NCBI GenBank assembly: GCA_964445985.1
Contig: CAYUMU010000083.1
Span: 1 to 29,328, forward strand
Direction: 5' to 3'
DNA length: 29,328 bases
Origin: an uncultured Pirellulales bacterium
GTDB lineage: Bacteria; Planctomycetota; Planctomycetia; Pirellulales; S012-138
A model generated the notes under the pieces. The model was given only the letters and a program-made list of their open reading frames with translations. It did no database searches and was not told where the DNA came from. A program made the position numbers and the translations under genes. Positions 48 to 28,678 of the stretch are shown here, in pieces. Each line of letters starts with the position of its first letter. The stretch's first letter is position 1.

Positions 48-126
48 AGTTCGGAGTGGGGAGTTCGGAGTGGGGGGTTCGGAGTTGAAGAGGGCGGATC
101 GGGGGCGTGTTATCGGGGCTGGGCCT
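48..126. repeat. Array of 7-nt units CGGAGTG/GGGAGTT/CGGAGTT (about 6 units) ending in CGGAGTTGAAGAGGG...GCTGGGCC. A related copy lies at 23758-23820.
   Basis: Read directly: cggagtg gggagtt cggagtg gggggtt cggagtt gaagagg ... gctgggcc. The 23758-23820 copy shares ttcggagtg, ggagttgaaga and gctgggcc in the same order. Confidence 0.6.
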
Positions 127-152
127 CGGTGTTGTGAATGCCTTATTTTTGC

Positions 153-211
153 AACCCGACGCGTTAGCGAGGGACGTTCGGGGGGGGACTCCCTCGCTAA
201 CGCGTCGGGTT
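153..211. repeat. Perfect hairpin / inverted repeat: 22-bp stem (153-174 pairs with 190-211) around a 15-nt G-rich loop. Second half of the composite element.
   Basis: acccgacgcgttagcgaggga is the exact reverse complement of tccctcgctaacgcgtcgggt. Non-coding context. Confidence 0.7.
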
Positions 212-224
212 ATGAATCCGTGGC
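181..224. repeat. About 44-nt segment (hairpin loop plus 3' arm plus tail) repeated at 25415-25459 with one mismatch.
   Basis: gggggggactccctcgctaacgcgtcgggttatgaatccgtggcg versus ccgggggactccctcgctaacgcgtcgggttatgaatccgcggcg. The two locations are in different reading-frame contexts and both intergenic. Confidence 0.7.
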
Positions 225-8341: not shown

Positions 8342-9131
8342 GCCCAAGTTAGTCTGTTTGGATTTCTCGACCGAGCACGGTGAGAACGAGTCAGCGAACG
8401 CGTTTGGAACTGATGCAGCGCGTGGCGCCCATGGCGATCGCCCCGAACCTACCTCGACCGACATGAACCTGTTTTTTGACGACGATCTGCTGGCCGATTT
8501 GCCGCCTGAGTTGCAGGCGTTCGCCTCGCAATTGAGTGACGAAGCGGATGGGCTGGTCGCGGCTTTTCCGGCGCGGGAAGTCCATTCCGCGCGGGTTGCC
8601 GGTGGAACGAATGGAATGCCGGTTGTTCTTGAAACATGTCTTTCTGAATCATCGCCCGAGTTTACGGTGGGCGGTTCGGGTGGCGTGACTGGTGAGGCTG
8701 GGGTTGGGGTTGGCGGCTGGCGTTGGCCGGGGCGACTGGCTCAGGTGGCCGCCATGATTGCGGTCCTGGCGGGGTTGAGCGCTCTGCCGCTGCAACGCGA
8801 TCATCGGGTGGCGAAAGAAGACGAAGTGGATCGGGAAAGCCAAGCGGGACGGGAAAGCCAAGCGGGCCGGGAAAGCCAAGTGGGCCGGGAAAGCCAAGTG
8901 GGCCGGGAAAGCCAGGTGGCGAGCATGGCCGAGCCAGCGGTGCCGCGGCCAGGGCGAGAGGCCCCATCGATTCAGGAAGTTGAACCAGTGGGGGCCGAAG
9001 CGGCGGTGATTGAGCCGGCAGGGTTATCGCCCACGGGGATGCCAGCCACCACGTTTGTTGAGTTATCGGGCGCGGAACAGGAAGCGTTGTTGGATTTGCT
9101 GAGCGAAACCGCGTCGATGGGATCGATTTAG
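8331..9131 (+). CDS. Putative single-pass membrane anti-sigma factor, translationally coupled to the ECF sigma gene and carrying (RESQ[AV]G)x5 repeats.
   Basis: ATG at 8331 overlaps the sigma stop (ATGCCATTTAA). One predicted TM segment (WRWPGRLAQVAAMIAVLAGLSALPL) sits between an acidic N-domain and a C-terminal repeat-containing domain. Gene order is sigma then partner. I recognise no zinc-finger anti-sigma motif. Confidence 0.5.
   Translation: MPFKPKLVCLDFSTEHGENESANAFGTDAARGAHGDRPEPTSTDMNLFFDDDLLADLPPELQAFASQLSDEADGLVAAFPAREVHSARVAGGTNGMPVVLETCLSESSPEFTVGGSGGVTGEAGVGVGGWRWPGRLAQVAAMIAVLAGLSALPLQRDHRVAKEDEVDRESQAGRESQAGRESQVGRESQVGRESQVASMAEPAVPRPGREAPSIQEVEPVGAEAAVIEPAGLSPTGMPATTFVELSGAEQEALLDLLSETASMGSI
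8832..8921 (+). repeat. Five tandem 18-bp units cgggaaagccaagcgggc (coding RESQAG/RESQVG), in frame inside the anti-sigma candidate.
   Basis: Direct reading; units differ only at A/V codon positions. Confidence 0.9.
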
Positions 9132-10832: not shown

Positions 10833-12188
10833 CTAGCGGGTAAACCAGATGAGGAGGGCGACGCCGACCAGCAGCACCGTTCCCACCGCGGCGGCAATGA
10901 GCCATAGTTGCCGCTGGTTCATGTTGTCTTGCTGCTCCAGGGCCTCGGCGACCTGTTCCATGTTGGGGTAGCGATCGGCCGGTTCTTTGGCGACCATTTT
11001 TTGAAACACCTGGTCCAGCCAGGCGGGCACGTCGGGGCGAATTTGCGAGAGGGAGGGGATCGGGCCGGTGCGATGGGCCATGAGTTTGTCGATCATGCCC
11101 TTTCCGGGGTAGGGAATCTGAGCGGTGAGCAGATGGAACATCACGCAGCCCAGGCTGTAGATATCGGCGCGGCCGTCGATGGAGCTGGCGTCGGTGGCCT
11201 GTTCGGGTGCGAGATAGTCGACGGTGCCGATCATTTGTCCGGGGCGAGTCAGGTCTTCGCCGTCGGCCATCGCGCCGTCGTCGTCGAGCTTGGCGAGAAT
11301 GAGGTTGGAAATCTTGATCTGCCCTCGATGGTTGACGATCAGATTTTCGGGTTTGACATTGCGATGATAGATGCCCTGGCCATGCAGATAGGCCAAGCCT
11401 TCGGCCGCGGAGCGGATGAACTCCACGACCGCTTCCACCGGCAACGGGCCGTGCTGTTGAATGATTTGCGCGAGGTCGGCGCCGCCCACGTATTCCATGG
11501 AGAGGAAGTGGATGTCGCCGTCTTCGCCCAGTTCGAACCCGGCCACGAGGTTGCTGTGCGACAGTTTGCGGGTGACTTTGAACTCGCGTTGAAATCGCTT
11601 GAGGACTTCGGTCTTGCTGGCGGCGGCCGGCTTGAGCAATTTGAGGGCGACGATGGCCCCGCTGCCGATGTGCCGCGCCTTGTAGACGGGGCCGGTCGAC
11701 GAACTGGCTGAACGCTCGAGCAGCTGATACTTGCCCACGCGCTTGCCGACGTTGCGGTCGCCCGTGGCGGCAGCGGTTTGGTTGGGGGCAGCGGTTTGGT
11801 TGGGGGCAGGGGGCTGGTTGGGGGCGGGGGCGGCTTTGCCAGCCACGGGCGCGGCGGGCAGGTTGGCCGCGGTTTCGGCTTGGGCCGCTTTGAGCATGGC
11901 TTCGAACGAGGCCTGGGCCGAGCGGAGGGCCGCATCGTAGGCCGCCTTGCGTCGGGCATCGCTCAGCCGGCTGTGGGCGAGCTGCAGTTCTTGCTGCAAA
12001 CGCATGGCCGCTTCGGCCTGGGGGCCGGTGGTATGGGGCCGAACGAGCGCCAGTCTGGATTGGGCGGCGCCGCGAATCACGGCCGGATCGGCCTCGAATC
12101 TTTTCAGGCCAAGCAGCACGTAGAGGTTGGGCGGCTGGTGGACGGGGTCGATGCCCAACCACTGCATGTACGGATCGAAAGGCTCCAT
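10833..12188 (-). CDS. Tail-anchored protein: degenerate J-like domain + protein-kinase-like domain that is a predicted pseudokinase (HRN and SNL in place of HRD and DFG) + C-terminal TM helix.
   Basis: Kinase fold: VALKLLKP (beta3 Lys present), YHRNVKPENLIV, IKISNLILAKL, TVDYLAPEQ. Codons checked on the DNA: cat cgc aat and tcc aac ctc. Gly loop degenerate (RSASSSTG). N-terminus PNLYVLLGL...RPHTTG...KAAYDAAL resembles a J domain lacking HPD. C-terminus LWLIAAAVGTVLLVGVALLIWFTR. ATG 12188 chosen; the ORF is open to 12614 without coding-like content. Confidence 0.7.
   Translation of the reverse strand: MEPFDPYMQWLGIDPVHQPPNLYVLLGLKRFEADPAVIRGAAQSRLALVRPHTTGPQAEAAMRLQQELQLAHSRLSDARRKAAYDAALRSAQASFEAMLKAAQAETAANLPAAPVAGKAAPAPNQPPAPNQTAAPNQTAAATGDRNVGKRVGKYQLLERSASSSTGPVYKARHIGSGAIVALKLLKPAAASKTEVLKRFQREFKVTRKLSHSNLVAGFELGEDGDIHFLSMEYVGGADLAQIIQQHGPLPVEAVVEFIRSAAEGLAYLHGQGIYHRNVKPENLIVNHRGQIKISNLILAKLDDDGAMADGEDLTRPGQMIGTVDYLAPEQATDASSIDGRADIYSLGCVMFHLLTAQIPYPGKGMIDKLMAHRTGPIPSLSQIRPDVPAWLDQVFQKMVAKEPADRYPNMEQVAEALEQQDNMNQRQLWLIAAAVGTVLLVGVALLIWFTR
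11770..11826 (-). repeat. About three tandem 18-bp units (coding APNQTA on the minus strand) in the linker of the pseudokinase gene.
   Basis: gcagcggtttggttgggg repeated; translation gives APNQPPAPNQTAAPNQTAA. Confidence 0.8.
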
Positions 12189-23203: not shown

Positions 23204-23719
23204 ATGCCCGACCCGATAGAACATCTCGAAAACCGTCCCTGGCTGGAGCGGATCCTCGGCCATATTCCCGGCTTCTCTGGCTACCTGCAGCGCGAGCGCC
23301 GCCGCGAGGCCGACGCCCTGCAACGCAACTTTCTGGCAGACCGCTTGCAGCGTTCGAAGCGGGCCATCGACACGGTGACTCGGGAACTGACAGCCCGGGG
23401 GATGATCGACCTGCTGGGCGATTTCGACCGGCTCCGGGGCCAACTCGATAAACTCATGGCGCAAATCCGCGGGGCCATGCACGGTTACAGCGGGTTTTTT
23501 GACCTGGTGCAGATCGATGAGAAGGCGCTCGACCGCGTGTACGAGCACGACGCCGACATGCTCGACCGCGTGGAAGAGCTGGCCGAAATGATCGAAGACC
23601 TGCCGCGGGAACGCGACCCGGCGGAGATTGCCGGCCGCGTGCAAAAGTGCCGCGAGCAGGCCGACGAGGTCGAACGGGTGTTTGCCATGAGGGCAGAAAT
23701 CCTCCAAGGCCTAGACTAA
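23204..23719 (+). CDS. 171-aa coiled-coil-rich, acidic hypothetical protein immediately upstream of the SPFH gene.
   Basis: ATG 23204 with GGGAG 8 nt upstream. Heptad-like LQRNFLADRLQRSKRAIDTVTRELTARG and C-terminal EELAEMIEDLPRERDPAEIAGRVQKCREQADEVERV. No recognisable catalytic motif. The ORF is open to 22907, but that extension overlaps the divergent promoter region. Confidence 0.5.
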   Translation: MPDPIEHLENRPWLERILGHIPGFSGYLQRERRREADALQRNFLADRLQRSKRAIDTVTRELTARGMIDLLGDFDRLRGQLDKLMAQIRGAMHGYSGFFDLVQIDEKALDRVYEHDADMLDRVEELAEMIEDLPRERDPAEIAGRVQKCREQADEVERVFAMRAEILQGLD

Positions 23720-23757
23720 CGTCAGCCCCAGTCACCAGCTACCAACCGAATGAGAAA

Positions 23758-23820
23758 AGTGCGGAGTGCGGAATTCGGAGTGCGGAGTTGAAGACGGGAA
23801 TCGTTTGTTGGTGCTGGGCC
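23758..23820. repeat. Second copy of the CGGAGTG-heptad element (cggagtg cggaatt cggagtg cggagtt gaagacggg...gctgggcc), 114 nt upstream of the SPFH gene start.
   Basis: Aligned by eye with 48-126. The downstream spacer also shares ttgcaa and cccgac(g/a)cg with 145-162. Confidence 0.55.
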
Positions 23821-23933
23821 GCTTTGGATTGCAAATTGAGCATGGGAGTAAGACTGCCAACGACCCGACACGAACTACCAACCCCCAGCAACCAGCCACT
23901 AGCAACCAGCCCCCCCCAACCAGGATCTACGCC

Positions 23934-25352
23934 ATGGGCCTTCGCTTGGAAGTCATTCAATACTTTGACAACACGAACAACTCGCTGGTGCATCGCATTC
24001 CGCCTGAAGGCTCGGCCGACATCAAGTACGGGGCCCAGCTGATTGTGCAGGAGACCCAAGAAGCGGTGTTCTTCCGCGACGGCAAGGCCATGGATAAGTT
24101 TGGGCCGGGCCGCTACACGCTGACGACGATGAACGTGCCGATCCTCACGCGGATTCTCACGATTCCCTGGCAAAAGTCGCCGTTTCAGGCGCAGGTGTAT
24201 TACATCGGGAAGCAAACCTTCCTCGACCAGAAATGGGGAACGCGCCAGCCGATTGCCTTCCGCGACAACGATTTTGGGATCGTGCGGCTCCGCAGCTTTG
24301 GCAAGTACTCGTTTCGCGTGGTCGATAGCACGGTGCTGCTGAACACGCTGGTCGGCACGCAGGGGAAATACACCACCGACGACATCACCAGCTTTTTGCG
24401 CGATATGATCGTCAGCCGGATGACCGACCTGCTGGGCACGCTGGGCATCAGCATGCTCGATTTGCCCAGCCGGTACGATGAGGTCGGCTCGGCGACGCGT
24501 GCCAAGGTTTCCGAGGAGTTCGCCAAGTACGGCCTGGAACTGGTCGACTTTTTTATCAACGCGATTACTCCTCCGGAAGAGGTCCAAAAGGCCATCGACC
24601 AGCGGAGCAGCATGGGCGCGATTGGCAATCTGAATGCGTTCATGCAGTACCAGGCGGCGCAAAGCATGGCGAAAATGGCCGAACGCGGCGGGGATGGCGG
24701 GGCCATGGGAATGGGCATGGGCGCCGGTTTCGGGATGATGGTGCCTGGCATGATGCGCGACGCCATGGCCAACCAGGCCGGCTATGGCCAAGGGGGTTAT
24801 CCGCAAGCGGGTCAACCATCGCAGCAGCCGGCTCCGCCCCAGCCATCGCAGCCCACTGCCAGCAGGCCGCAGCGGGTGCAGCCGCCTGGCGGCTCCAGCG
24901 ATATGTTCGCCGACCTGGCCGGCAGTCCCGCCGCAGCCGCTCCCGGCAATCCCCGCGACATGGTCCGCACCATTGCGGAATCGGCCGGATACCGCCTGGC
25001 GGCTTCGGGCAATGCGATGGACATTACCGTGCCCATCGGGACCATGCGCAAGCAGGTGGTGCACGTGGAGTTCGGCGGCAGCGACGACGAAGGGCACGAG
25101 ATCATTCGCTTCCACTCCATTTGTGGGCCGGCCAACGAGCGGAACGCGATGCAGTTGCTTCGCTACAACACCAAGATGGTCCACGGCGCGTTCGCCGCGG
25201 TGCAACAAGGCCAAGAAGAAAAGATCGCCATCCAGGCCAACCTGCTCACCGAAACGGCCGACCCGCTCGAAGTCAGCCGCACGTTGGCGGCGGTTGCGTG
25301 GCAAGCGGATCGGGTGGAGGAGAAACTGCTGGGTGGGCAGGATCAGTATTAG
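23934..25352 (+). CDS. SPFH/band-7 (stomatin/prohibitin-family) domain protein with a Gly/Met/Pro/Gln low-complexity linker and a C-terminal alpha/beta domain, possibly YbjN / T3SS-chaperone-like.
   Basis: N-terminal region matches bacterial SPFH proteins without an N-terminal TM ([39 protein letters not shown]...; later [31 protein letters not shown]). Linker [23 protein letters not shown]...[15 protein letters not shown]. The C-terminal about 130 aa ([19 protein letters not shown]...[16 protein letters not shown]...) is assigned only by pattern resemblance. ATG 23934 chosen; the upstream in-frame stretch is C-rich low complexity. Confidence 0.65.
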
Positions 25353-25414
25353 TGTCCCTTTCGCGTGGAAAGCAGCGGGCGCGAAACTCTTTTGCTCCCT
25401 TCTCCCCCGGAGTA

Positions 25415-25459
25415 CCGGGGGACTCCCTCGCTAACGCGTCGGGTTATGAATCCGCGGCG
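25415..25459. repeat. Second copy of the hairpin 3'-half element, 63 nt downstream of the SPFH gene stop.
   Basis: 38/39 identity to 187-224. The 5' arm of the hairpin is absent here; only a small local ccccgg/ccgggg inverted repeat precedes it. Confidence 0.65.
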
Positions 25460-25545
25460 GATACGAACTCGCGGCTTTCATCGGCCCGGAAGCGTACCGA
25501 ATTACGGAGAGCTATTCTCCGCCTGTCTTATAAAGGAAACCGCTT

Positions 25546-26337
25546 GTGTCTGAACCCGAACTGAAGGCCCGGCTCGATTTGGCCTTGACCGCAGCCCACG
25601 CGGCGGGCGAGATCACGCTGCGTTACTTCCAGCGCGACAACTTTGAAGTGGAGTGGAAGCAGGACGCCTCGCCGGTGACCGTGGCCGACAAGGAGTCGGA
25701 AAAGTACCTCAGGGCCCAGATCGCCGCCAACTTCCCCGAAGATGGAATTCTAGGCGAAGAGTTCGGCGAACAGCCGGGAACCTCGGGCTATCGTTGGATT
25801 CTCGACCCGATCGATGGCACCAAGTCGTTCATCCACGGCGTGCCGCTGTATGGCACGCTGATTGGCATTGAGCGGGGCGACCGCTGCCCGATCGGCGTGA
25901 TTCACATGCCGGCCCTGAACCAGCGGGTTTATGCCATGCAAGGCGGCGGGGCCTGGTTTCAAGATGGGAATAGCCCCGCCGTTCCTGCCCGCGTGAGCCA
26001 AACGGCCGAGTTGAGCAAAGCTTTGTTTCTCACGTCCGAGGTAGAAGGCTTCAATAAGGTCGGCCGGTTCGAGGCATTCACGGCTTTGCAGGCCGCGGCC
26101 GGGCTAACCCGCACCTGGGGCGATTGCTACGGATACCTGCTGGTAGCCACGGGCCGCGCCGGGGCGATGGTCGATCCCCGCATGAGCGTATGGGACGCGG
26201 CCAGCATGCAGCCCATCCTGGAAGAAGCCGGCGGCACGTTCACCGACTGGGAGGGGAAGCCGACCATTCACTCGGGCAACGGCGTGGCGACCAATGGGTT
26301 GCTGCTGGAGCAGGTGTTGAAGCATACAAGGTGTTGA
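25546..26337 (+). CDS. Inositol-monophosphatase-family phosphatase (IMPase / histidinol-phosphatase HisN-like).
   Basis: WILDPIDGTKSFIHGVPLYGTLIGIE and WDAASMQPILEEAGG motifs. GTG start 8 nt after AAAGGAAA. Confidence 0.85.
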   Translation: MSEPELKARLDLALTAAHAAGEITLRYFQRDNFEVEWKQDASPVTVADKESEKYLRAQIAANFPEDGILGEEFGEQPGTSGYRWILDPIDGTKSFIHGVPLYGTLIGIERGDRCPIGVIHMPALNQRVYAMQGGGAWFQDGNSPAVPARVSQTAELSKALFLTSEVEGFNKVGRFEAFTALQAAAGLTRTWGDCYGYLLVATGRAGAMVDPRMSVWDAASMQPILEEAGGTFTDWEGKPTIHSGNGVATNGLLLEQVLKHTRC

Positions 26338-27423: not shown

Positions 27424-27495
27424 GGTTACAAACTGGCTTGATTAAAGCCCAAGTGCCTTTTGGAACCCATGAAGAATAACTTTCGGGCATCGTCG

Positions 27496-27537
27496 CCTTT
27501 CGCTCCGCGAAAGGATTTGCTTTCGCGGAGCGAAAGC
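27496..27537. terminator. Two adjacent 19-bp palindromes that are reverse complements of each other (cctttcgctccgcgaaagg / gctttcgcggagcgaaagc), followed on the plus strand by ttttgttttt. Candidate terminator between the duplicated-domain gene and the exonuclease gene.
   Basis: Direct reading. The structure can fold as two hairpins or as one long hairpin. The T-tract is on the plus-strand side, whereas the flanking genes are on the minus strand. Confidence 0.35.
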
Positions 27538-27619
27538 CGACTTTGTTTTTCGTGCAATCCCTTCGCTTGGCGACAGAGGGTACGCCCACGGTCACAGGCA
27601 AAGCCGATGAGGCCGACTG

Positions 27620-28678
27620 CTATTCAGGAACTACGCCCGAACCGGGTTGTTTTTGCGTGGAATAGGTTTGGAGAATCGCGGCCAGCGACTTGAAGGACTC
27701 AGCCGAGATATCGCCCTGCAATGACTGTCGATCCCAGTCGAAAATGACTTCGTGGCAGCCAAAGCAAATGAGCATGCGGTACTGCCGCTGGTCGCGTTGC
27801 CACACCAGGAGCCAATCGGGGTGAAAGCCGCCGCAGAACTTGGGGTGGTAGGGGGTAAAGCTGGCCGAGGCCGTGCAAAGGTCGAACAGTTTGGGGAAGT
27901 CGGCGGCCGAAGGTTCGATGGCCGGGCGATAGAACGTGTATCCCCGAAGTTTGAAGCGTGGCCGGCGCACTGGGGGTGTCGCTGGCTGCCACCGGTTAGG
28001 GCGCGGGAGCCCTTCGAATAGTTGCAGCGATTCGGCATGAAAGATGGTTTGCAGCAGCGGATCCCGCTGGGAAGCAAAGCGGGCTTCCTCGGCTTTCTCT
28101 TCCGCTTGAGACGGCGGACGCTGCCTGCCGTATTTCGCCAGCCAATACTTCAGGTCGCCAGCGGCATGGGGGGCGAAGTCGGTCCAGAGTCCGCTCGTAG
28201 GGCCATGGATTTGCGCCTCCTGGCACCCCAAGCAAACCAGCACCTGGTATACGGCATCGCCGTTCTTCCAAGTGAGACACCAATCGGGGTGAAAGCCGCC
28301 GCAGAACTTGGAGCCGCTGTAGGGTTGAAACGATCGTGCTTGCGAGCAAAGGCGGCGGAGATTCCGCTTCTCGGCTAGCTTGACTTCGAGGGGCGCGCGG
28401 TAGAAGTGGAAGCCGTGAATCTGGATGGTTTCTTTTTGCTGAAGTTCTTGCTCAAGCAGTTCAGGTTCCCAGCGCGGATGCGGCAGGCCTTCGTGGAGCG
28501 TGAGCGCTTCGCAGTTGCGGATTGCCCGCATGAAGGGGTCGATGGATTGCTCAAAGTGCTCGCGGGTATCGGGCTGGGAGCCAGCGAGATTTGGCGGGCT
28601 ATCGTTCGCCGACAAGGCTCCAGCGGCGGCGAGCAACATCAGGAGCAAGTACGTTGCGTATCGTGCGGCGTTTACCAT
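27620..28678 (-). CDS. Secreted protein made of two tandem copies of a roughly 150-aa module carrying the motif LC-x2-A-x-SF-x-PY-x3-KFCGGFHPDW-x-L-x-W-x6-Y-x2-L-x-C-x-GC-x-E. No function recognised.
   Basis: Signal peptide MVNAARYATYLLLMLLAAAGALSA. Copy 1 ...FQPYSGSKFCGGFHPDWCLTWKNGDAVYQVLVCLGCQEA. Copy 2 ...FTPYHPKFCGGFHPDWLLVWQRDQRQYRMLICFGCHEV. Each copy also starts with EGLP-x-P-x-W. ATG 28678 chosen; the ORF is open to 28714. Confidence 0.6.
   Translation of the reverse strand: MVNAARYATYLLLMLLAAAGALSANDSPPNLAGSQPDTREHFEQSIDPFMRAIRNCEALTLHEGLPHPRWEPELLEQELQQKETIQIHGFHFYRAPLEVKLAEKRNLRRLCSQARSFQPYSGSKFCGGFHPDWCLTWKNGDAVYQVLVCLGCQEAQIHGPTSGLWTDFAPHAAGDLKYWLAKYGRQRPPSQAEEKAEEARFASQRDPLLQTIFHAESLQLFEGLPRPNRWQPATPPVRRPRFKLRGYTFYRPAIEPSAADFPKLFDLCTASASFTPYHPKFCGGFHPDWLLVWQRDQRQYRMLICFGCHEVIFDWDRQSLQGDISAESFKSLAAILQTYSTQKQPGSGVVPE

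Follow-up and report, generated by a model that had tools for sequence, protein, structure and literature searches.

Two unrelated classes of short repeat, a perfect hairpin and an array of heptads, lie adjacent to each other at the start of the window (the whole 29,328-nt stretch of DNA from an uncultured Pirellulales bacterium that was analyzed here), and parts of both recur around an SPFH/Band-7 gene. The repeats are real. The explanation that best accounts for these observations jointly, and which we regard as highly probable, is that a Y1 transposase-linked, REP/REPIN-like hairpin and an unrelated class of heptad array sit side by side, and that the SPFH gene is an ancestral resident of its locus. 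This reading removes a false lead, in that neither a gene cassette nor a split mobile element surrounds the SPFH gene.

Repeats in the window

The hairpin occupies positions 153–211 (all features are given on the + strand) and consists of a 5′ arm at 153–174 (AACCCGACGCGTTAGCGAGGGA), a 15-nt loop at 175–189 and a 3′ arm at 190–211 (TCCCTCGCTAACGCGTCGGGTT). As noted in the first-pass annotation, the stem is perfect: the 22-nt arms (AACCCGAMGCGTNAGCGAGG and its complement) are 100% complementary over 22 bp, with a predicted DNA folding energy of −30.2 kcal/mol (z = −8.7). The arm is laid out as AAC-CCGA-CGCGTNAGCGAGG, and the CCGA “foot” tetranucleotide is found at 156–159. The earlier observation that loop and 3′ arm recur downstream of the SPFH gene also held, as 183–225 and 25417–25459 were identical at 42/43 positions across the loop end (the 3′ part of the loop, GGGGGACT, is common to both), the 3′ arm (25424–25445 in the second copy) and the 3′ flank. 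This flank (212–225; ATGAATCCGTGGCG) marks a subfamily within the source genome. The copy at 25417–25459 starts 72 nt past the SPFH stop and is abutted by a small 8-bp G+C-rich hairpin (25403–25422; TCCCCCGG-AGTA-CCGGGGGA) with no T-run after it. Matches to the 22-mer arm were confined to three arm positions in the window, with 0 matches in shuffled sequences. A fourth arm, absent from the list in the first-pass annotation, was seen at 300–319 (CCTTGCTGACGCTTCGGGTT); it is partnerless, carries 3 mismatches, is 63% identical over 43 nt and showed no structure on folding. 25417–25459 is a solo REP-like copy; the arm at 300–319 is solo as well, but older and more diverged. An Rfam search of the whole window returned no match at gathering thresholds and, at a relaxed E-value, nothing but chance microRNA matches on the hairpin; a tRNA/tmRNA search of the window found none.

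Heptad array copy 1 (45–94) is composed of AATAGTT (partial), CGGAGTG (52–58), GGGAGTT, CGGAGTG (66–72), GGGGGTT and CGGAGTT (80–86), followed by the junction GAAGAGGG. It begins 2 nt past a TAG (47–49) that closes a frame open from the contig end, and it has no secondary structure (z = 0.4). Six CGGAGTG-type heptads had been reported here; the array itself was confirmed by Tandem Repeats Finder (TRF; period 7/14 at 48–86), while the units comprise three canonical CGGAGTK, two GGGRGTT and one partial heptad. The contig starts within repeats. Copy 2 (23755–23797) contains AAAAGTG (partial), CGGAGTG, CGGAATT, CGGAGTG and CGGAGTT, ending in the junction GAAGACGG, with a TRF period of 7 at 23758–23788. 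Its first full CGGAGTG (23762) begins 42 nt beyond the stop codon (23717–23719) of the preceding gene, and the block ends 136 nt ahead of the SPFH start. The recurrence of the heptads upstream of the SPFH gene was well supported by alignment of 44–101 with 23754–23803, which scored 48 at about 80% identity, while no shuffle scored above 23. The CGGAGTTGAAGA junction is present in both arrays, as is, with weaker conservation, the GCTGGGCC block; the weakly conserved tail of copy 1 (105–125; CGTGTTATCGGGGCTGGGCC) matches that of copy 2 (23801–23820; CGTTTGTTGGTGCTGGGCC) with an alignment score of 18, a value equaled or exceeded in 4/300 shuffles. The two arrays are therefore true homologues, duplicates of one unit of about 80 nt. 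An assembly artefact was rejected for the window repeats, which are 80–98% identical and lie within unique sequence, and whose common 43-nt block is short.

The first-pass annotation had joined array and hairpin into one composite element, “empty” at the contig start and “filled” by the SPFH gene further along, with a diverged trace of the 5′ arm near 23868. A related possibility, which we consider unlikely, is that array and hairpin (about 44–225) form a mobile or duplicating unit of the source genome, of which a decayed composite lies upstream of the SPFH gene and a separate solo copy downstream. The order of the parts is the same in both places, and the spacing is similar (junction to arm, 61 nt in copy 1; junction to “trace”, 67 nt in copy 2); these similar distances leave some room for a genome-specific unit of array plus hairpin. 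The window arrays are also truly homologous, non-repetitive tail included, and copied blocks can exceed the hairpin elsewhere, as in one Pirellula MAG where blocks of about 150 nt are common to the copies. The putative trace (23862–23872; GACCCGACACG), however, is an 11-mer with 2 mismatches to the arm, and the window held 18 such matches versus 15.6 expected by chance, so it is not part of the element. No alignment was obtained between 126–152 and 23821–23861, or past the 11-mer. Given a trace at chance level and nothing further that aligns, a 5′ arm cannot credibly be assigned to the “filled” copy. Furthermore, among 123 copies of the arm family in other genomes, 2 lay ≤50 nt from a heptad array versus 3.3 expected, i.e. 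arrays were no nearer to arms than to random intergenic positions, and a search for CGGAGTTGAAGA-N50-80-AACCCGACGCG in 241 million JGI metagenome records produced one match. That single match was attributed to chance, falling in coding-like G+C-rich DNA with no hairpin.

The arm family and its probable Y1 transposase

The exact 20-nt arm core was found in >112 genome stretches, all of them from Planctomycetota (Pirellulaceae, Planctomycetaceae, Gemmataceae, Lacipirellulaceae and others), and in 1 viral contig only. Several arm copies were present per MAG. About two thirds of the family were hairpins (89/133), mostly with loops of 12–25 nt, and about one third were solo arms (42/133; 42–44 among the 125–133 copies examined). 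Nearly all copies were intergenic (119/125), and their distribution among convergent, divergent and tandem gene contexts was near baseline (n = 125). Arm positions 8 and 13 varied without compensatory change, and the flank after GGGTT differed among copies (ATGA, ACCA, TCCA, GTGA). A single arm contains at most a 2–3-bp internal stem (CGC-GTNA-GCG), the outer pair of which is not conserved, and forms no stable hairpin alone. A literature search with the arm sequence string returned irrelevant primer matches only.

A 176-aa ORF lies between the arms at one locus (L008); it matched Pfam Y1_Tnp at 27.6 bits against a cut-off of 23 and has 1081 homologues, many of them labelled “REP element-mobilizing transposase RayT” by JGI. 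The first-pass idea of an element able to bracket a gene is thus correct as far as the bracketing goes, with the difference that the gene is a Y1 transposase and not SPFH. The same arms were present on both sides of a 156–176 aa HUH/Y1 transposase gene in 9/9 loci examined (L008; L120, L121 and L125 of Crateriforma conspicua; MAG loci L122–L124, L126 and L127), the 5′-type arm upstream and the 3′-type arm downstream. All 22 of 22 proteins gave a Y1_Tnp match, and N85, H86, H88, Y146 and Q151 (the NHxH and Y...Q motifs) were invariant in these 22 and in 40 aligned homologues; further invariant residues were seen from position 4–25 on (DPIAFFLT..YGTWLPGD.RGW). An AlphaFold model of the protein (pLDDT 79) was used for a fold search, in which the top 30 PDB matches comprised the IS200, ISDra2 and IS608 TnpA proteins and the E. 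coli RAYT 4ER8, while sequence searches of the PDB with a single Y1 protein and with a profile gave no match. Scores against the NCBIfam models REP_Tyr_transpos (RAYT; 15.8 bits) and transpos_IS200 (22.1 bits) were below their cut-offs of 80 and 55, respectively. A Y1 gene was present in just 1/124 arm-rich planctomycete loci. The description of an IS200/IS605 insertion sequence does not fit, given the missed IS200 equivalog cut-off and this scarcity of the gene. Many of the Y1 homologues are located on contigs of about 1 kb. No Y1 gene was found on the 29-kb contig itself, and the linkage of hairpin and transposase in the source genome is therefore inferred from other genomes.

The hairpin at 153–211 is accordingly interpreted as a non-autonomous REP/REPIN-like element. 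A clade of HUH single-tyrosine (Y1, IS200-like) transposases from planctomycetes probably recognizes its arms as end sequences, and the genes of these enzymes are themselves enclosed by such arms. To judge from the mechanisms of IS200/IS605 TnpA and the RAYTs, the Y1 enzyme probably binds to single-stranded DNA in which the arm or hairpin has folded, the replication fork being the most likely place, and might then cut beside the arm, possibly at the CCGA foot, so that the element would be moved or copied to new intergenic sites. Copies presumably decay later to solo arms. On this model 25417–25459 would be a recent solo of the hairpin's within-genome subfamily and 300–319 an older one, and the SPFH locus would have gained the array upstream and the solo arm downstream within the source lineage.

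Whereas a REP sequence is usually restricted to one species or genus, this arm is common to several orders, a degree of conservation far beyond the usual; near-invariant over several planctomycete orders, it would rank among the REP-like sequences with the deepest conservation reported so far. Judged from sequence comparison, this conservation would suggest either a very old vertical co-inheritance with the transposase or an added host function, the latter being possible given how far the arm exceeds usual REPs in conservation. Co-option of the hairpin (possibly with the array) by the host as a gene-end signal, as a transcript 3′ stabilizer or terminator, or as a site for a DNA-structuring protein seems to us quite unlikely as the main explanation. 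Roles of this kind have been proposed for E. coli REP/BIME elements and would account for an arm so strongly conserved. Both window copies are downstream of co-directional genes, the stem is very stable, the 20-mer is held fixed across orders, and convergent spacers are slightly enriched (21% of copies vs 15% of spacer length). However, there is no T-run after the hairpin, divergent spacers hold their expected share (16% of copies vs 17% of spacers), and solo arms between co-directional genes show no strand preference, with 10 on the strand of the genes and 9 on the opposite strand. The sequence is also fixed, yet two stem positions are uncompensated, whereas a terminator requires structure and not a fixed sequence. 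An intrinsic terminator was consequently discarded, as the scan detected no terminator-like site at 1–1000 or at the solo arm and the solos lack strand bias; so was a structured small RNA, in view of the uncompensated positions and the same lack of bias. Consensus scans gave no support to a sigma-70 promoter. The promoter/operator-plus-terminator pair raised in the first-pass annotation thus finds no support in consensus scans or in the gene context of the arm family. Movement by a Y1 transposase remains our preferred origin for the hairpin.

The SPFH/Band-7 gene (23934–25352; 472 aa; Pfam Band_7_1, E = 4e-66) is a resident core gene and not cargo. Its protein has 4828 homologues at E ≤ 1e-30, and the order HEAT gene/small gene/SPFH is conserved in three relatives (L113, L114 and L117) with neither array nor arm on either side of SPFH. 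The downstream gene differs, being an IMPase here and an FBPase or NTP-transferase in the relatives, and the solo copy at 25417–25459 sits where the gene order varies. A Pfam scan of 7 window ORFs revealed no integrase. That SPFH is cargo, inserted into or mobilized between the halves of a composite element, is extremely improbable: the arm family can bracket a gene (L008), and an array and a 3′ arm do lie upstream and downstream of SPFH, but this widespread gene keeps its synteny without the repeats, a credible 5′ arm is missing, the array block has diverged from copy 1 much more than the arm block has (identities of about 80% and 98%, respectively), a 57-nt portion of the “empty” copy (126–182, the whole 5′ arm included) has no counterpart at the SPFH locus, and the gene between the arms is a Y1 transposase in all nine loci. 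An integron cassette with attC sites was also rejected, based on the synteny of SPFH in relatives, on an arm fixed in sequence and not just conserved in structure, and on flanks after GGGTT that do not fit GTTRRRY. The “empty” versus “filled” reading is contradicted, since solo arms are numerous where paired halves had been proposed and SPFH synteny is kept in relatives that have no flanking elements. The remaining suggestion of the first-pass annotation, a repeat family unrelated to SPFH, was right about the lack of relationship, although there are two separate families and not one composite.

Heptad arrays in chromosomes and phages

The CGGARTK arrays are a class separate from the hairpin and occur in planctomycete chromosomes and in many tailed phages. 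The motif (CGGARTK)3-5 was recovered from >120 viral (phage-contig) stretches representing 105 independent contexts, and the contigs that bear it are from real phages, encoding terminase, portal and MuA/MuB-like proteins. A similar array was found in one planctomycete chromosome locus (L006), and period 7 was the commonest intergenic tandem period in planctomycete loci (18/49 arrays). In 31 of the 105 viral contexts the array begins ≤16 nt past the stop codon of an ORF of ≥80 codons on its own strand, compared to 7.3% for positions chosen at random within these loci (p about 1e-11), a control drawn from whole loci and not from intergenic DNA only; part of the effect may stem from the short gene spacers of phages. 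Antisense arrays after a stop numbered 9, equal to the control level. The distance to the preceding stop had a median of about 14 nt, while the distance to the next start was broad, with a median of about 126 nt.

No protein family was recurrently encoded beside the phage arrays, the best being terminase in 6/82 locus groups. One MuA-like protein of an array phage (a single sample) has named relatives in Bryobacteraceae and Acidobacteriaceae, so that arrays probably occur outside the planctomycetes as well. BLAST of the heptad array against GenBank phages and plasmids, with the low-complexity filter on, gave no match, and a literature search with the heptad string yielded one irrelevant match and no description in the searchable literature. 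Our best guess, offered with low confidence, is that a sequence-specific protein would bind to these arrays, either in the transcript or in one strand of the DNA. We tentatively raise the possibility that (CGGARTK)3-5 arrays are an undescribed strand-specific gene-end signal common to planctomycete chromosomes and many unrelated tailed phages, in which case a putative protein-binding array on the transcript or on single-stranded DNA directly after stop codons would be the most likely form. A single 7-nt unit found in phages and bacteria with positional and strand bias represents a modest side lead.

Relation to known repeats and transposases

The cyanobacterial STRR heptamers are comparable heptamer repeats. 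Sets of the TAACTGA heptamer have been described from Beggiatoaceae, Cyanobacteria and Bacteroidetes (MacGregor 2015, PMC4679880). Like these and STRR, the arrays consist of 2–6 head-to-tail 7-nt units, are intergenic, occupy many sites in unrelated lineages and so far lack an assigned function; unlike them, the unit is CGGARTK, and it is carried by planctomycete chromosomes and by tailed phages of diverse kinds. In addition, TAACTGA sets are placed immediately before start codons (PMC4679880); CGGARTK arrays on the sense strand tend instead to begin shortly after stops.

With REP/REPIN-RAYT systems the hairpin family shares short intergenic palindromic repeats, arranged as inverted doublets and decayed singlets, that flank a Y1 gene; the enzyme probably moves the repeats in trans, and the modelled fold matches 4ER8. 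Examples of such systems are E. coli REP/BIME with TnpA-REP (PDB 4ER8) and, reportedly, the Pseudomonas REPINs of Bertels and Rainey from 2011. The family differs from them in having no 5′ GT[AG]G tag and no GTAG at the stem foot, in a single arm that lacks a stable hairpin, in Y1 proteins that do not reach the RAYT model cut-off, and in an arm conserved across orders and not specific to a species or genus. The consensus of AACCCGAMGCGTNAGCGAGG and its complement can be used to mask a repeat common in planctomycete intergenic DNA, which probably yields spurious ORFs and probably breaks MAG assemblies.

In TIRtrons (or TIRYTs), Y1 genes lie between long terminal inverted repeats, further copies of which are scattered singly, as dimers or in clusters, and Rhodopirellula baltica is singled out for its many such genes and flanking repeats (Di Nocera, De Gregorio, Rocco 2013, BMC Genomics 14:522; PMC3733652). 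Our Y1 genes likewise lie between inverted repeats that occur dispersed; the R. baltica GTAG-20/21 repeats given in PMC3733652 are other sequences than the arm. The accessible portions of the supplements of PMC3733652 and PMC6006769 contain no matching sequences.

The closest correspondence is with class 3 TnpA-Y1. In Quentin, Siguier, Chandler and Fichant 2018 (BMC Genomics 19:475; PMC6006769), this class is defined from 24 proteins, mainly from Planctomycetes, with NHVH and YV[VI][AENY]EQ (Y----Q) motifs and a 155-aa profile, and on either side of its genes are atypical structures that have a CnGA foot and can reach high copy numbers. The Y1 proteins studied here have NH(V/L/M/I)H, a conserved W, Y----Q and an extended conserved N-terminus, and their genes are flanked by arms that contain CCGA (vs the CnGA foot) and that are dispersed in multiple copies. 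By these features the proteins match class 3 TnpA-Y1, a REPtron-like group, a match of described features and not of sequence identity in arms or proteins. Since the same arms flank the Y1 gene in all nine loci in which that gene was examined and the features of that protein match class 3 TnpA-Y1, the hairpin is a REP/REPIN-like element, a newcomer to a known class of elements. A concrete and very widely conserved motif is now tied to the little-studied class 3 Y1 transposases, so that binding and cleavage experiments are easy to design. Compared to the class 3 description, the arm reported here is near-invariant over several families, mostly forms 20–22-bp hairpins and is solo in about one third of its copies.

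A dispersed arm family and its Y1 transposase gene

The arm of the hairpin at the start of the window belongs to a dispersed, intergenic motif that occurs mainly as inverted doublets and flanks a Y1/HUH transposase gene. In the species-representative genome collection, more than 112 stretches contained an exact match to its 20-nt core, CCTCGCTAACGCGTCGGGTT; among the matches listed, all were from Planctomycetota, covering several families and often with multiple copies per MAG, and only one viral contig carried the exact core. Repeats of this kind probably break short-read assemblies, so that copy numbers in MAGs are likely too low. A partner arm lay upstream in 89 of 133 copies, and 42 of the 133 were solo (i.e. 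unpaired) arms. Loops were 12–25 nt for most hairpins, with a maximum of ∼120 nt. Genes called simply by codon usage left 119 of 125 elements intergenic, and their distribution among convergent, divergent and tandem spacers (18/14/53) was roughly proportional to the baseline (75/77/309). Among solo arms between co-directional genes, 10 were on the same strand as the genes and 9 on the other, a split without strand preference. No Rfam model covers the element.

Among partner arms, 18 of 20 positions were conserved in at least 84% of copies, and mostly in >90%; position 13 was free and position 8 followed the order C>A>T>G. Strong conservation of the arm sequence across planctomycete orders is the unusual feature of the hairpin. 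Positions 8 and 13 were also frequently unpaired with the opposite arm, which argues for an arm that would be read by sequence-specific recognition rather than selected for pairing alone. Two further forms were observed. A variant partner, GCGCAACTTCAAAA-CGCGTTAGCGAGG, in which the outer 5'-arm half AACCCGA is swapped for CTTCAAAA, recurs at nine comparison loci (L005, L010, L039, L080, L094, L097, L102, L106 and L125) and looks like a separate sub-element with only the inner arm half in common. The Pirellula MAG CAYMXM01 carries inverted arms ∼120 nt apart, with ∼70 nt of inner sequence conserved between copies (L036 2209–2370, L054 370–530, L085 7062–7223, and other loci), apparently a longer MITE-like unit built on arms of the family.

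At locus L008, a 176-aa ORF that matches Pfam Y1_Tnp (IS200-like) above the cut-off lies between a 5'-type and a 3'-type arm spaced 550 nt apart. This ORF had 1081 homologues at E≤1e-5, many of them on ∼1 kb contigs and many named 'REP element-mobilizing transposase RayT' by JGI. Eight further Y1 loci, three from Crateriforma conspicua assemblies and five from other MAG assemblies, were compared, and all eight had the same arm motif on both sides of the gene. Distances from arm to gene were mostly ≤∼130 nt (up to ∼300 nt in L127), and the flanks took the form of single arms, hairpins or tandem arm arrays (periods of 43, 76 and 83 nt); orientation was constant, with the 5'-type arm upstream and the 3'-type arm downstream. 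The Y1 proteins have invariant NHxH and Y...Q motifs, and 22 of 22 matched Y1_Tnp. Their scores against the NCBIfam models of IS200 TnpA and RAYT were in each case under the cut-off. The top 30 PDB fold matches to an AlphaFold model (pLDDT 79) comprised IS200, ISDra2 and IS608 TnpA, and E. coli RAYT (4ER8). Arms were also amplified in tandem, beside Y1 genes or elsewhere, as 10 copies with a period of 43 nt and as 76-, 83- and 127-nt units (L122 9474–9882, L125 2671–2950, L127 3510–3770, L006 5209–5482); these resemble REP clusters known from other families. In L123 (14242–16468), a second, distinct Y1_Tnp gene lies 4 kb away from the one flanked by arms and adjoins a large serine recombinase.

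Heptad arrays as a second repeat class

Tandem-repeat detection confirmed the heptad arrays at 45–94 and 23755–23797 (copies 1 and 2) as real. The recurrence upstream of SPFH described in the first-pass annotation was borne out by an alignment score of 48 between 44–101 and 23754–23803, versus a shuffle maximum of 23, and homology extends outside the repeat unit through a weaker common block that ends in GCTGGGCC. The arrays had no secondary structure. Period 7 was the top intergenic tandem period at the planctomycete loci, with many differing units. The CGGARTK unit forms similar arrays in a planctomycete chromosome (L006 3911–4087) and, unexpectedly, in IMG/VR contigs (more than 120 stretches, L129–L248; G+C 41–70%), where typically 3–5 units follow a partial unit, AATG or AGTG. 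Several arrays can lie on one contig, 15 of 135 arrays have an inverted array nearby, and an L146 phage array shares the terminal junction of copy 2, ...CGGAATTGAAGAC. Terminase, portal and MuA/MuB-like proteins identify the contigs as genuine tailed phages; these sort into 82 unrelated groups, across which no protein family recurred beside the arrays.

After removal of related contexts, 105 remained for an analysis of array position relative to ORFs of ≥80 codons. In 31 of these, or 30%, the array started ≤16 nt after a same-strand stop, compared with 7.3% of random positions (p∼1e-11), an effect of uncertain size because the control positions were random and not restricted to intergenic sequence. 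Antisense arrays within this distance (9) equaled the control level. Copy 1, on the sense strand, begins 2 nt after a TAG that ends a frame entering at the edge of the contig; the first CGGA of copy 2, also sense, lies 42 nt past a stop. Our best guess, at low confidence, is that CGGARTK arrays are putative protein-binding arrays read on one strand, as RNA or single-stranded DNA. A search by sequence string found no description of them in the literature; the TAACTGA heptamer sets described from Beggiatoaceae, Cyanobacteria and Bacteroidetes come closest, and these too have no known function (MacGregor 2015, PMC4679880).

The arrays are independent of the hairpin family. A repeat family unrelated to the SPFH gene had been suggested previously; the lack of relation to the gene stood, with two families in place of one. 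That array and hairpin form a unit specific to the source genome is improbable: of 123 arm-family copies in other genomes, 2 had a period-7 array within 50 nt and 5 within 200 nt, versus 3.3 and 7.1 for random intergenic positions, and a scan of the metagenome collection gave no recurrence of the composite pattern. Of the two classes, the arrays pose the more open question.

Several other repeats were observed. A 14-nt (2 x 7) array, ACCAGCC/CCCAGCA x 3.4, occupies the spacer directly before the SPFH start codon (23877–23923), and at L045 (1096–1141) CCCAGCC x 6 begins 12 nt past an arm-family hairpin. On the minus strand of L006 (3840–4160), a repeated unit of ∼140 nt joins a CGGAATK-type heptad array to a conserved box, CGTGGGAAAACG, and a 20-nt palindrome without mismatches, TTCTGGAAATATTTCCAGAA. 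The 18-nt tandem repeats at 8824–8919 (5.3 copies) and 11765–11831 (3.4 copies) and the exact 32-nt direct repeat at 27812–27843 and 28280–28311 (468 nt apart) have no relation to hairpin or heptad arrays; the first and last lie within called genes and 11765–11831 spans two uncertain gene calls.

Repeats around the SPFH gene

The window spans a whole contig, 29,328 bp long, of an NCBI MAG. Its gene content fits a planctomycete and includes a sulfatase gene (951–2732; window gene calls and Pfam), a minus-strand HEAT-repeat protein gene that precedes a small gene and the SPFH/Band-7 protein gene (23934–25352), and an inositol monophosphatase gene (25546–26337). The contig start falls within a repeat-rich stretch (1–230). 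The hairpin at 153–211 has the perfect stem first described, with fully complementary 22-bp arms (153–174 and 190–211) and a 15-nt loop, and as single-stranded DNA folds at −30.2 kcal/mol (z = −8.7). Its loop and 3' arm do recur downstream of SPFH: 183–225, which spans the end of the loop, the 3' arm and a 14-nt flank, is repeated at 25417–25459 with 42 of 43 positions identical. Because this identity covers loop and flank bases that vary in the family, it marks the two copies as recently derived from a common source in this genome. Another solo arm at 300–319, the third copy, is diverged. Both hairpin-family copies adjoin 12-base pieces, CGCGAAAGGGAC and its complement GTCCCTTTCGCG (241–252 and 25354–25365), akin to a half-motif of a second palindromic repeat at 27492–27541 (22-nt arms 95% complementary, 6-nt loop). 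Each arm of that palindrome carries CTTTCGC-NNN-GCGAAAG, a motif also present at three other planctomycete loci (L022 5815, L026 5967, L044 1603), and it is probably a further REP-like family.

While the observations of the first-pass annotation were largely right, its headline interpretation, an 'empty' composite at 48–224 and a 'filled' one bracketing SPFH, was wrong. SPFH homologues numbered 4828 at E≤1e-30, and the three closest relatives (85%, 78%, and 91% over half length) all had the HEAT (minus strand), small gene and SPFH order of the window; the gene following SPFH varied from genome to genome. Spacers before (122–204 nt) and after SPFH in these relatives contained no heptad array or arm; SPFH is therefore a resident gene, around which array and arm were added in the source lineage. 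Identity to copy 1 was unequal (∼80% for the array flank versus 98% for the arm flank), and 57 nt of the 'empty' copy, including the whole 5' arm, had no counterpart near SPFH. The supposed 5'-arm trace at 23862–23872 is an 11-mer with two mismatches, for which the window holds 18 matches versus 15.6 expected by chance, and the alignment goes no further. Scans gave no support for a promoter/operator-plus-terminator pair: neither scanned region of the window had promoter-like sites, hairpin and solo arm had no terminator-like sites, and the three terminator-like matches in 23600–25700 lie away from the solo arm and equal the shuffle expectation.

Comparison with known transposase systems

By analogy with IS200/IS605 TnpA and RAYTs, a Y1 enzyme would bind the folded end on single-stranded DNA and its catalytic tyrosine would cut beside it; the short element could thus be moved or copied in trans, and loss of one arm would turn doublets into immobile solos. 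The 29,328-bp contig itself carries no Y1 gene. Class 3 TnpA-Y1 proteins, found mainly in Planctomycetes and Acidobacteria, are described by NHVH and Y----Q motifs and a 155-aa profile (Quentin et al. 2018, PMC6006769). The arm-flanked Y1 proteins fit this class by its described features, and CCGA is present within the arm. In Rhodopirellula baltica, Di Nocera et al. (2013, PMC3733652) had earlier noted many genes for tyrosine transposases that are flanked by matching repeats. The hairpin belongs to a known kind of element, the REP-like sequences partnered with class 3 Y1 transposases.
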